Of a stretch of 64,000 nt of DNA, positions 41,389 to 42,237 are shown one piece after another. The stretch is from NCBI GenBank assembly GCA_020723485.1, contig DYIU01000003.1, positions 394,347 to 458,346 of the forward strand, in the 5' to 3' direction. Position 1 is the stretch's first letter, and the number at the start of each line of letters is the position of its first letter. The DNA is from Acidimicrobium ferrooxidans (lineage in GTDB: Bacteria > Actinomycetota > Geothermincolia > Fen-727 > Anoxymicrobiaceae). A program made the position numbers and the translations under genes. The notes below the pieces were generated by a model. That model saw only the letters and a list, made by a program, of their open reading frames with translations. It made no database searches and was not told the origin of the DNA.

Positions 41389-41427
41389 CTCTCCTCCTCG
41401 TTCGTCATCGAACCGTTTGAAAGCACG

Positions 41428-41700
41428 AAAAAACCCGCCGACCTGGTCTCCCACCTGGCCGCGGGTCTCGGCGGACAATCCCTCATGTCAACGCCTACAC
41501 AGGCACACCTCCCGCACCCAGGTGGGGGCGCATGGCCATGCGGCATTCCATCCGACCGTATCCCTTTTGCTTACCCGGCTCGATTGACACTGTCTCGACT
41601 CCCGCTCTCACACCCAACTGAAGCATTAAATTGCTATTAATCCTATCGTTATGGTAGGGTATTTTAAAGGCAATCGCCGTTCGTGTCAAGCGGCCTTGCC
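41428..41700 (-). promoter_or_regulatory. metY leader. A sigma70-like promoter (-35 TTGACA at 41689-41684, 17-nt spacer, -10 TAAAAT at 41666-41661) is followed by an approximately 230-nt structured leader. The leader ends in a GC-rich hairpin plus U6 (41475-41428) about 40 nt before the start codon. Candidate riboswitch or attenuator.
   Basis: Read directly on the minus strand: CCGCCGA...UCGGCGGG UUUUUU, then CGUGCUUUC...GAGGAGGAGAG AUG. Confidence 0.45.
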
Positions 41701-41754
41701 CGTAACTATCACCGCAAGGCCCCGGTGCCTTCGACGGAGAGGAACACAAGCGAC

Positions 41755-42237
41755 ATGAAGATCTCGACACGGGCGCGGTACGGCATGCGCGCCATGCTCG
41801 ACATAGCAGTTCACAGCGACGGCGGCCTGGTCCTCTTGAAGGACATCGCCGCCAGGCAGGAGATCTCGAAGCGCTATCTCGAGCACATGATGACGCAGCT
41901 TCGGAACAGCGGTCTCGTGGTCTCCGAGCGCGGCGCGAGCGGCGGCTATCGACTCGCCCGCGACCCGGGCGACATAAGGCTCGACGAGATATTCGAGGCG
42001 CTCGAGGGGGAGATAGCGGTGGTGGAGTGCATAAGAGACGCCGCCATCTGCAGCAGGGCCGATGAATGCGTCACAAGGGACCTCTGGTGCGAGGTGGCCT
42101 CCGCCATACGTTCCGTGCTGGGGACCAAGACCCTGGCGGATCTCAAGAAGCGATATGAAAGGGTAAAGGAACAGGGGAGGGATTCCGGCAGGGGAGATGT
42201 TCGGGTTCACTCCTCGACGGGAAGGGCCGTGAAGTAG
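41755..42237 (+). CDS. Rrf2-family transcriptional regulator with three clustered Cys (IscR/NsrR-like Fe-S cluster ligands)
   Basis: N-terminal wHTH (ISTRARYGMRAMLDIA) and CIRDAAICSRADEC. Divergent from metY. Confidence 0.8.
   Translation: MKISTRARYGMRAMLDIAVHSDGGLVLLKDIAARQEISKRYLEHMMTQLRNSGLVVSERGASGGYRLARDPGDIRLDEIFEALEGEIAVVECIRDAAICSRADECVTRDLWCEVASAIRSVLGTKTLADLKKRYERVKEQGRDSGRGDVRVHSSTGRAVK

Follow-up and report, generated by a model that had tools for sequence, protein, structure and literature searches.

A probable Cys/Met leader-peptide attenuator and a candidate Rrf2 operator at the metY-metX-metW operon of an Anoxymicrobiaceae genome

Organization of the metY-metX-metW locus

In a 64,000-nt stretch of Acidimicrobium ferrooxidans DNA (assembly GCA_020723485.1, contig DYIU01000003.1, positions 394,347 to 458,346 of the forward strand; hereafter referred to as the window), the operon metY-metX-metW is transcribed divergently from a gene for an Rrf2-family regulator, and the intergenic region between the two is 366 nt in length (367 nt from ATG to ATG). 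Here we describe the leader of metY, its small upstream open reading frame (uORF) and the adjoining promoter, of which the coordinates are collected in Table 1. By NCBIfam models, metY was identified as homocysteine synthase, or O-acetylhomoserine (OAH) sulfhydrylase, followed by MetX and by MetW, the latter above its cut-off. The close relatives have the same gene order, metY-metX-metW; in two loci metW was not called.

The strong minus-strand promoter of the original prediction, TTGACA-N17-TAAAAT, was confirmed with 11 matches to the 12 consensus positions, and is the sole promoter-like site within 41200-41950 (0.3 expected); the metY promoters of the relatives show the same arrangement, TTGACA-16/17-TAnAAT. 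From the predicted transcription start near 41654 to the metY ATG at 41388, the leader is about 266 nt in length, and the GC hairpin with six U residues, claimed to lie shortly before this ATG, was also found as described. In contrast, the claim that divergent promoters share one hexamer was not supported, since TGTCAA (41684-41689), proposed as the -35 of the Rrf2 gene, is merely the opposite strand of the metY -35 and matches TTGACA on the plus strand at only two of six positions; no plus-strand promoter for the Rrf2 gene scoring 8/12 or higher was found within 41560-41757.

Table 1. Position of the metY control elements and of associated features in the window
Feature	Position (strand)	Description
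Operon metY-metX-metW	38254..41388 (-)	metY 41388..40069, metX 40060..38912, metW 38910..38254
metY promoter	41661..41689 (-)	-35 TTGACA 41689..41684, 17-nt spacer, -10 TAAAAT 41666..41661
Leader-peptide uORF, 18-codon reading	41495..41551 (-)	MECRMAMRPHLGAGGVPV; ATG 41551, stop TAG 41497..41495
Putative regulatory codon cluster	41531..41545 (-)	UGC (Cys) 41545..41543, AUG 41539..41537, AUG 41533..41531
Antiterminator 5' strand	41511..41526 (-)	CCCACCUGGGUGCGGG; within the uORF; inverted repeat I1
Invariant module	41495..41512 (-)	Shine-Dalgarno-like GGAGG 41512..41508, 7 nt, GUG, stop UAG
Intrinsic terminator hairpin	41434..41465 (-)	CCCGCGGCC.GGU-loop-ACC.GGUC.GCGGG; -25.6 kcal/mol, z = -2.5
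Terminator U6 tract	41428..41433 (-)	39 nt before metY ATG
metY Shine-Dalgarno sequence	41391..41399 (-)	GAGGAGGAG; read in the window, kept in relative L001
Divergent Rrf2-family regulator gene	41755..42237 (+)	ATG 41755
Candidate Rrf2 operator	41636..41658 (-)	17-bp imperfect palindrome CCTACCATAACGATAGG (41658..41642) + ATTAAT
Second copy of the box	36263..36279 (-)	CCTACCATAGGTATAGG; promoter region of heavy-metal P-type ATPase gene, ATG 36240
8-bp inverted repeat	41692-41699 / 41714-41721	GGCCTTGC/GCAAGGCC; 14 nt between arms; just upstream of metY -35

The conserved switch and reading frame of the metY leader

For comparison, related leaders were collected in several ways. A genome scan with MetY gave one close relative, L001, an Actinomycetota metagenome-assembled genome (MAG) with 90% identity in MetY and 76% in the divergent Rrf2 protein, and its alignment with the window revealed conserved islands (the -10 with an adjoining box, a core of about 45 nt, the terminator and the Shine-Dalgarno sequence) in an otherwise diverged leader. 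A metagenome scan with the core pattern GCATGGCCATGCN{2,8}CCACCTGGG gave 16 loci, of which 13 proved to be fortuitous matches within coding regions, leaving three near-identical contigs as genuine leaders (L084, L088 and L095). Contigs with MetY at 80-90% identity added L103, L107, L108, L109, L113, L115 and L118, plus the more distant L119, while an nhmmer profile of the core recovered L002 and L021, both 'delta-proteobacterial' MAGs, and detected no second core copy in the window. The whole set of 13 related leaders, from Actinomycetota and 'delta-proteobacterial' MAGs, has in common a uORF, an antiterminator strand within the uORF, and a terminator. Since the upstream neighbours differ in nearly all related loci, it is metY, not the Rrf2 gene, that the leader accompanies.

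The terminator hairpin was missed by a generic terminator scan because it includes one bulge and one mismatch. Every relative carries a U4-U7 tract at 105-127 nt from the start of the minimal uORF. The 5' arm and loop of this hairpin (41465..41450) double as the 3' strand of an antiterminator, of which the 5' strand, 16 nt in length and 88% complementary to 41450-41465, lies within the uORF; as both helices need 41465..41450, they are mutually exclusive. In the minimum free energy (MFE) fold of a transcript cut before the terminator 3' arm, the helix between uORF and terminator 5' arm was formed in all ten close leaders, and the RNAalifold consensus returned the same antiterminator helix. In the alignment of ten sequences, 93.6% of the antiterminator cells were paired, with six pairs changing on both sides, a number reached by none of 500 shuffles, and slid controls gave at most 48.5% paired; for the terminator, 94.4% of the cells were paired and two pairs change on both sides. 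The duplex between uORF and terminator arm was far more stable than that with shuffled uORFs in 10 of the 13 leaders (z = -3.5 to -6.1) and no better than shuffles in L021 (z about -0.8) and L119 (z about -0.9); the automatic arm definition of this test did not apply to the window leader. The same helix is built from different sequence in L113 (AGCCCGG..GCGGGAG with CUCCCGC..CCGGGU), in L002 (UCUUGGCAG-GGG with CCC-A-CUGCCAAGA) and also in L119. With a conserved terminator and a mutually exclusive antiterminator, both with covariation, the suggestion that the leader is an expression platform proved correct. In the MFE fold of the full-length window leader, the antiterminator strand is sequestered in a long imperfect hairpin, for which no conserved equivalent was established, and a small hairpin GCAUGGCYAUGC (inverted repeat I7) is present.

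The uORF that holds the antiterminator strand can be read in the window from several starts, giving the 18-codon peptide of Table 1 or a minimal reading of 14 codons, MAMRPHLGAGGVPV, from ATG 41539 (41539..41495), and the frame stays open to ATG 41626 (43 codons). Each of the 13 related leaders has a uORF in this place, and its Cys/Met cluster immediately precedes the antiterminator strand. This cluster is M-E-C-R-M-A-M in the window and reads MCCMAM, MCRMAM, MCYMAM, MMMCCMSMC or MMCMC in the relatives. Compared with MECRMAMRPHLGAGGVPV in the window, the core peptide is MACRMAMRPHLGAGGTPM in L107, MIACCMAMRHSPGAGGTPM in L113, MCRMAMPFHLGAGGMLM in L108, MCCMAMPPHLGAGGMLM in L109, MCCMAMRSHLGAGGRPM in L084, MCYMAMRSHLGAGGRPM in L115 and L118, MCCTGTRSGTRQGGRMPM in L119, MMMCCMSMCFHLGRGGPPM in L002, MMCMCRYAGRGGLFM in L021, (..RCR)MAMPGPPGRGGMTM in L001 and (..EYR)MAMRTHLGAGGSPM in L103. 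The relatives contain 3-10 internal Met/Cys codons; in L002, internal Cys and Met codons account for 10 of 39 codons in the longest reading and for 8 of the 18 codons after the start of the core. All three stop codons are in use among the leaders (TAG, TAA in L115 and TGA in L021), a +1/-1 indel pair restores the frame in L001, and the frame is open for 25-55 codons in every leader, often to an ATG with a better Shine-Dalgarno sequence. The in-phase Cys/Met cluster, the three kinds of stop, the compensated frameshift and the long open frame all speak for a translated frame. The short Met-containing ORF that had been considered 'less convincing' in the original prediction is the best-conserved part of the leader and most likely its sensor. 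Of the components of a leader-peptide attenuator, a conserved short ORF, enrichment of Met/Cys codons (weak in the window), and a terminator with an exclusive antiterminator are present. A search of the uORF peptide against a protein database gave no candidate.

Some further features of the uORF were noted. The upstream out-of-frame AUG was dropped as an argument against a longer uORF after in-frame upstream ATGs were found (MECR-, MACR-, MIACC-). The perfect palindrome GCATGGCCATGC was rejected as a protein site, for half of the relatives have GCT in place of GCC, a synonymous change by which the palindrome is broken. In the minimal uORF, the first and second Met codons are covered by a 14-nt perfect palindrome, CGCATGG/CCATGCG (41529-41542), which could make a small hairpin hiding the start codon or pausing the polymerase and which is lost in half of the relatives through GCC->GCT.

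The 3' end of the uORF is formed by the GGAGG-7 nt-AUG/GUG-stop module, in which GGAGG and AUG are separated by exactly 7 nt in every one of the 13 leaders despite the variable length of the uORF. The AUG is present in 12 of the 13 leaders and is replaced by GUG in the window, and GGAAG stands in place of GGAGG in L119. In most leaders this uORF end lies in a hairpin loop, of which the stem differs among the relatives. The module may simply encode G-G-x-x-M; alternatively, it could hold a ribosome, either terminating or initiating, at the G-rich end of the antiterminator strand.

The geometry of a translating ribosome was modelled by masking its footprint at each codon (P site -12 to +15) and refolding the truncated transcript. 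With any codon of the cluster in the A site, at least 70% of the antiterminator pairs were kept in 11 of 12 modelled leaders, and the pairs fell to 0 within one to four codons past the cluster, again in 11 of 12; for L021, the automatic definition of P1 failed. In this model, the antiterminator can form while a ribosome is stalled at the cluster and is prevented once the ribosome moves on. Met codon 14 is unlikely to be a regulatory codon, because a ribosome stalled at it masks the antiterminator in the model and GUG occupies this position in the window.

The same design was then sought outside this sequence family. We scanned 80 diverse metY loci for ATG-initiated ORFs of 8-30 codons with at least four Met/Cys codons after the start and with U5 at 35-85 nt past the stop, and detected such Met/Cys-rich uORFs in 8 of the 80 loci, compared with none of 80 on the reverse complement and 2 of 662 random segments. 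Six of the eight are unrelated in sequence to the window leader (loci L006, L008, L009, L027, L051 and L076) and lie about 100-250 nt upstream of metY: MCMCCLPAGGGLG and MMDMSCSPMCPAGRALDGA of Verrucomicrobiota, MCCCMCMCRLRGWGVSM of Desulfomonilia, ...CACMCCCMSACPAGGVHRFR of an unclassified MAG, and MVMCMGMCMCLRVEGHGG and ...MCMDMCMCMPMRVVVHGG of Acidobacteriota. In all six the 3' part of the uORF pairs with the terminator 5' arm in the truncated fold, and the GGAGG-AUG-stop module is absent from the metY uORFs of these other phyla. The recurrence of one design before metY, whether convergent or very old, is the strongest argument for the uORF as the sensor.

In the original prediction the leader had been taken for the expression platform of a riboswitch or attenuator, possibly of a riboswitch for S-adenosylmethionine (SAM). 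Rfam 15 was scanned against the whole window at the gathering score and against both strands of 41300-41850 at E<=10 with permissive filters, and neither scan gave a match in the metY leader; likewise no Rfam match was obtained in 20 related metY loci. The leader matches none of the covariance models for SAM and S-adenosylhomocysteine (SAH) elements (SAM-I, SAM-IV, SAM-I/IV, SAM-II, SAM-V, SAM-III, SAM-VI, SAM/SAH and SAH), and no conserved structured aptamer was seen upstream of the expression platform among the relatives compared. An aptamer would be expected in the 75-130 nt that separate the -10 from the uORF core, and this stretch varies among the relatives in both sequence and length, which argues against a SAM/SAH riboswitch; as judged from the sequences, the leader is most likely not a SAM riboswitch. 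The T-box model (RF00230) also gave no match in the leader, and the antiterminator, with an internal mismatch of only 1-2 nt, lacks a 7-nt bulge, unlike that of T-boxes. The sole Rfam match in the window is a c-di-GMP-II riboswitch (RF01786) at 16584-16667 (+), with 61 bits against a gathering score of 53.5, directly upstream of the gene for a 490-aa adhesin-like surface protein with SdrD_B, SpaA and CarboxypepD_reg domains.

The divergent Rrf2 regulator and its candidate operator

The product of the divergent gene scored 131.6 bits with TIGR00738 (cut-off 73.3), the Rrf2 superfamily model and the only one that it passed, and stayed below the equivalog cut-offs for CymR (NF047409; 119.9 against 195 bits) and IscR (TIGR02010; 113.1 against 207.55). 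All of 16 homologues, including those with no more than 42% identity, share its cysteines C92-X6-C99-X5-C105. In good agreement with the original prediction, the sequence thus places the protein among regulators of the three-cysteine type, with the cysteines after the winged helix as in iron-sulfur (Fe-S)-type members. Close homologues carry the JGI label 'cysteine metabolism repressor'. The window protein also has a C-terminal extension of about 20 residues (42157-42234 (+)) that is absent from most homologues.

The candidate operator of Table 1, which begins 3-4 nt past the -10, spans the predicted transcription start, and a box was found at the same position in at least eight related metY promoters, including perfect 7-1-7 palindromes in L108 (CTACTGT-A-ACAGTAG) and L109 (CTACCAT-A-ATGGTAG). 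In L021, the box CTACCAAAATAGTAG lies at the promoter of an Rrf2-uORF-metY operon. Of three kinds of Rrf2-homologue promoter that were inspected, two (L099 and L101) carry the box as well, the genes not being near metY; in general, Rrf2 homologues at 73-82% identity do not adjoin metY, and the box is seen at some of their own promoters. L001 carries a second box, the perfect palindrome CTACCGA-A-TCGGTAG (about 2640-2660), 70-85 nt upstream of the Rrf2 start, which overlaps a weak TAGGAA-17-TAGAAT promoter and is, by its position, a possible autoregulatory site; it is missing from the corresponding place in the window. The end of the box, GATAGGA(A)TTA, resembles what we take to be the right end of the CymR box, although this string was not found in the literature checked.

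Within the window, the box was matched twice against 0.07 expected, and none of 100 shuffles reached two. The second copy is identical at 14 of 17 positions, stands in a TTGACT-17-TACCAT context with a half-box near 36300-36312, and precedes a gene for a 974-aa ATPase with two HMA domains, an arrangement which suggests that one regulator may join metYXW with metal export.

The 8-bp inverted repeat that had been proposed as an operator is indeed present, slightly inside the interval first given for it, but as an operator it found no support, since it is not conserved in the closest relative L001. As judged from association only, the CCTACCATAACGATAGG box, and not the GGCCTTGC repeat, may well be the operator of the three-cysteine Rrf2 repressor.

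Distant Rrf2 genes (32-50% identity) directly precede metY in L011, L013 and L010 and carry another palindrome, AAGTTGAT...ATCAACTT / AACTTGATCAAC, at their promoters, which indicates that the link between Rrf2 and metY is broad and that the operator differs.

As to other genes around these loci, a gene for a protein with HMA, DsbD_2 and cupredoxin domains follows metW in the window (36366-37886 (-)) and in several relatives (L103, L107 and L116), and genes for E1-E2 ATPases and CsoR-like proteins (Trns_repr_metal) are frequent neighbours of metYXW or of the Rrf2 homologues.

Mode of control and comparison with known systems

Based on these findings, the metY leader is probably a ribosome-mediated transcription attenuator that senses the supply of Cys- and Met-transfer RNA (tRNA). 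The observations behind this interpretation are the exclusive helices with their covariation, the conservation, codon content and position of the uORF, and the compatibility of a modelled stalled ribosome with the antiterminator. The operon appears to be controlled at two levels, by a promoter repressor and by the leader attenuator. At the promoter, the Rrf2 repressor bound to the 17-bp box would block RNA polymerase. In the leader, a ribosome translating the uORF would stall on the cluster when Cys-tRNA or Met-tRNA is scarce, leaving the antiterminator strand free to pair with the terminator 5' arm once this is made, with readthrough into metY as the result. When both Cys and Met are plentiful, the ribosome would cover the antiterminator strand while the terminator is being transcribed, and the terminator would form, ending the transcript at U6 (41433..41428). 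Since equilibrium favours the terminator, the decision would have to be kinetic, set by the timing of ribosome and polymerase.

Several points weigh against this interpretation. The uORF of the window is the poorest member of the set, with one Cys and two Met codons among 17 internal codons and with GUG (Val) where 12 relatives have the final AUG; its Shine-Dalgarno sequence (AAGGGA, some 10 nt before ATG 41551) is a weak one, and its start is ambiguous among 41626, 41551 and 41539. RNA pairing alone can also explain much of the nucleotide conservation of the uORF. The simple model accounts neither for the GGAGG-7 nt-AUG-stop module nor for the hairpin with the stop codon in its loop, and, unlike in the trp paradigm, a ribosome at the stop codon lets the antiterminator partly re-form in the model (80% in the window). 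At equilibrium, most states of the full-length RNA favour the terminator, whether or not a ribosome is modelled, so that equilibrium modelling of ribosome positions on this RNA was discarded as not discriminating. Finally, the Rrf2 gene adjoins metY only in the window, in L001 and, as an operon, in L021 and a few other phyla, and the closer Rrf2 homologues sit elsewhere.

Among the alternatives, one keeps translation but replaces starvation as the signal, with the GGAGG-7 nt-AUG/GUG-stop module as the active part, acting either as a 'start-stop' site at which an initiating ribosome is parked or as a site of pausing at termination (nascent G-x-G-G-x-x-M plus Shine-Dalgarno-like anchoring), where a signal would hold the ribosome on the G-rich 3' end of the antiterminator strand. 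The exact 7-nt spacing in 13 leaders with otherwise variable uORFs fits such a role, as does the GUG of the window, which is still a start codon and no longer a Met codon, and a ribosome at this position could cover the GCGGG that competes with the terminator 3' arm. The fixed spacing, on the other hand, also follows from the in-frame coding of G-G-x-x-M, the versions of Acidobacteriota and Verrucomicrobiota end in ...HGG*, ...GLG* or ...DGA* without AUG-stop and yet keep cluster and switch, and the Cys/Met enrichment upstream is left unexplained. We consider this alternative improbable.

That the leader is a ligand- or factor-binding RNA switch with an incidental open frame seems to us quite improbable. 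In such a switch, the antiterminator would close a three-way junction, made with the stop-codon hairpin and a variable hairpin, and termination would be set by a small molecule, an uncharged tRNA-Met or a protein through stabilisation or blocking of this junction. A junction-like domain closed by the antiterminator was indeed seen in the truncated folds of all ten close leaders; the stem sequences of the stop-codon hairpin differ among the relatives (by eye), much of the uORF conservation coincides with paired positions, and the Shine-Dalgarno sequence of the uORF is weak or absent in several members. Against this stand the empty Rfam scans and the inner hairpins, which are not kept in L113, L115, L119, L002 and L021, whereas the uORF, the Cys/Met cluster and the stop are. 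The use of three stop codons and the compensated frameshift point the same way, the in-phase AUG AUG AUG UGC UGC AUG UCC AUG UGU is hard to explain without selection at the codon level, and the sequence-unrelated leaders of other phyla share only uORF codon content and layout.

A hairpin with U6 that is incidental or a constitutive partial terminator, with control by promoter and repressor only, would agree with a terminator favoured at equilibrium in most members whatever the modelled ribosome position and with a whole-leader folding energy only modestly better than that of shuffles (z = -1.8), but is barely credible, because terminator, complementary strand and uORF are kept together in 13 related and six sequence-unrelated leaders and the antiterminator is maintained by covariation.

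The attenuator interpretation can be carried further, to an undescribed multi-phylum class of Met/Cys leader-peptide attenuators of the direct-sulfhydrylation operon (metY), in which the Actinomycetota/Desulfobacterota branch would add a ribosome-parking GGAGG-7 nt-AUG/GUG-stop in a hairpin loop for extra sensing (dependent on release factor, formylmethionyl-tRNA (fMet-tRNA) or nascent peptide), with an Fe-S Rrf2 repressor as partner by which metal export would be co-regulated; taken as a whole, this extension is speculative and rather unlikely.

If the leader is an attenuator as proposed, many uncultivated lineages (Geothermincolia-like Actinomycetota, Desulfobacterota, Verrucomicrobiota and Acidobacteriota) would read the supply of sulfur amino acids via the ribosome at metY. 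It would provide a simple, testable annotation rule for such leaders, explain the empty covariance-model scans upstream of these genes, and represent a natural case of Met codons, which are also needed for initiation, as regulatory codons. The box would give a candidate regulon for an uncharacterised three-cysteine Rrf2 regulator, consisting of homocysteine synthesis and heavy-metal export.

The textbook regulators of methionine genes are SAM riboswitches, T-boxes and repressor proteins. Attenuation by a leader peptide is on record for Trp, His, Leu, Ile/Val, Thr and Phe, and for Cys as a mechanism that acts on translation. With the SAM riboswitches (S-box/SAM-I, SAM-IV, SAM-II and others), the leader analysed here shares the metY/metX targets, the position in the mRNA and premature intrinsic termination, but it shows neither a covariance match nor a conserved aptamer, and the signal would be charged tRNA as read by the ribosome, not SAM. 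On the protein side, the arrangement resembles that of CymR of Bacillus subtilis and Staphylococcus aureus and of IscR, in that a winged-helix Rrf2 protein lies beside genes of sulfur metabolism. The window protein differs in having three predicted Cys ligands (the CymR of B. subtilis is without a cluster; PMC9338935), in scoring below both the CymR and the IscR cut-offs, and in having its putative box also at a metal-ATPase promoter.

Among actinobacteria, a survey of amino-acid leaders in 2005 described elements for Trp, Cys and Leu and stated explicitly that none was found for methionine genes (PMC1262725). A Met or Met/Cys leader peptide, or an attenuator of metY, was not found in the literature searched, of which the coverage was incomplete. 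In mycobacteria, polycysteine leaderless small ORFs (sORFs) control the translation of cysteine genes (Canestrari et al., bioRxiv 10.1101/834739), and the likeness to the metY leader lies in the actinobacterial sulfur amino-acid genes and in ribosome stalling, here predicted, at Cys codons of a small upstream ORF (bioRxiv 10.1101/834739; for earlier Cys leader peptides, PMC1262725). The mycobacterial sORFs are leaderless, carry consecutive Cys codons and unmask a downstream ribosome-binding site without an intrinsic terminator; in the metY leader, by contrast, some 28 nt separate the first in-frame ATG (41626) from the predicted start, only one Cys codon is present in the window, Met codons are mixed in, and an intrinsic terminator follows.

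The closest agreement is with the classical attenuators, E. coli trpL, hisL, leuL, pheL and thrL and the actinobacterial trp and ilvB leaders (PMC1262725), in which a uORF rich in codons for the end product is followed by an exclusive antiterminator and terminator, a U tract and the biosynthetic operon, and in which a ribosome stalled at the regulatory codons, owing to their position, leaves the antiterminator strand free. The metY leader differs from these in its Met and Cys codons, in an antiterminator strand that lies within the uORF, 13 nt upstream of the stop, and not downstream of it, in that no clear conserved 1:2 (anti-antiterminator) hairpin was found, and in the invariant GGAGG-7 nt-AUG-stop ending. 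The type of attenuation itself is well known, and what the metY leader would add to it is the Met/Cys specificity together with an antiterminator strand placed within the uORF.

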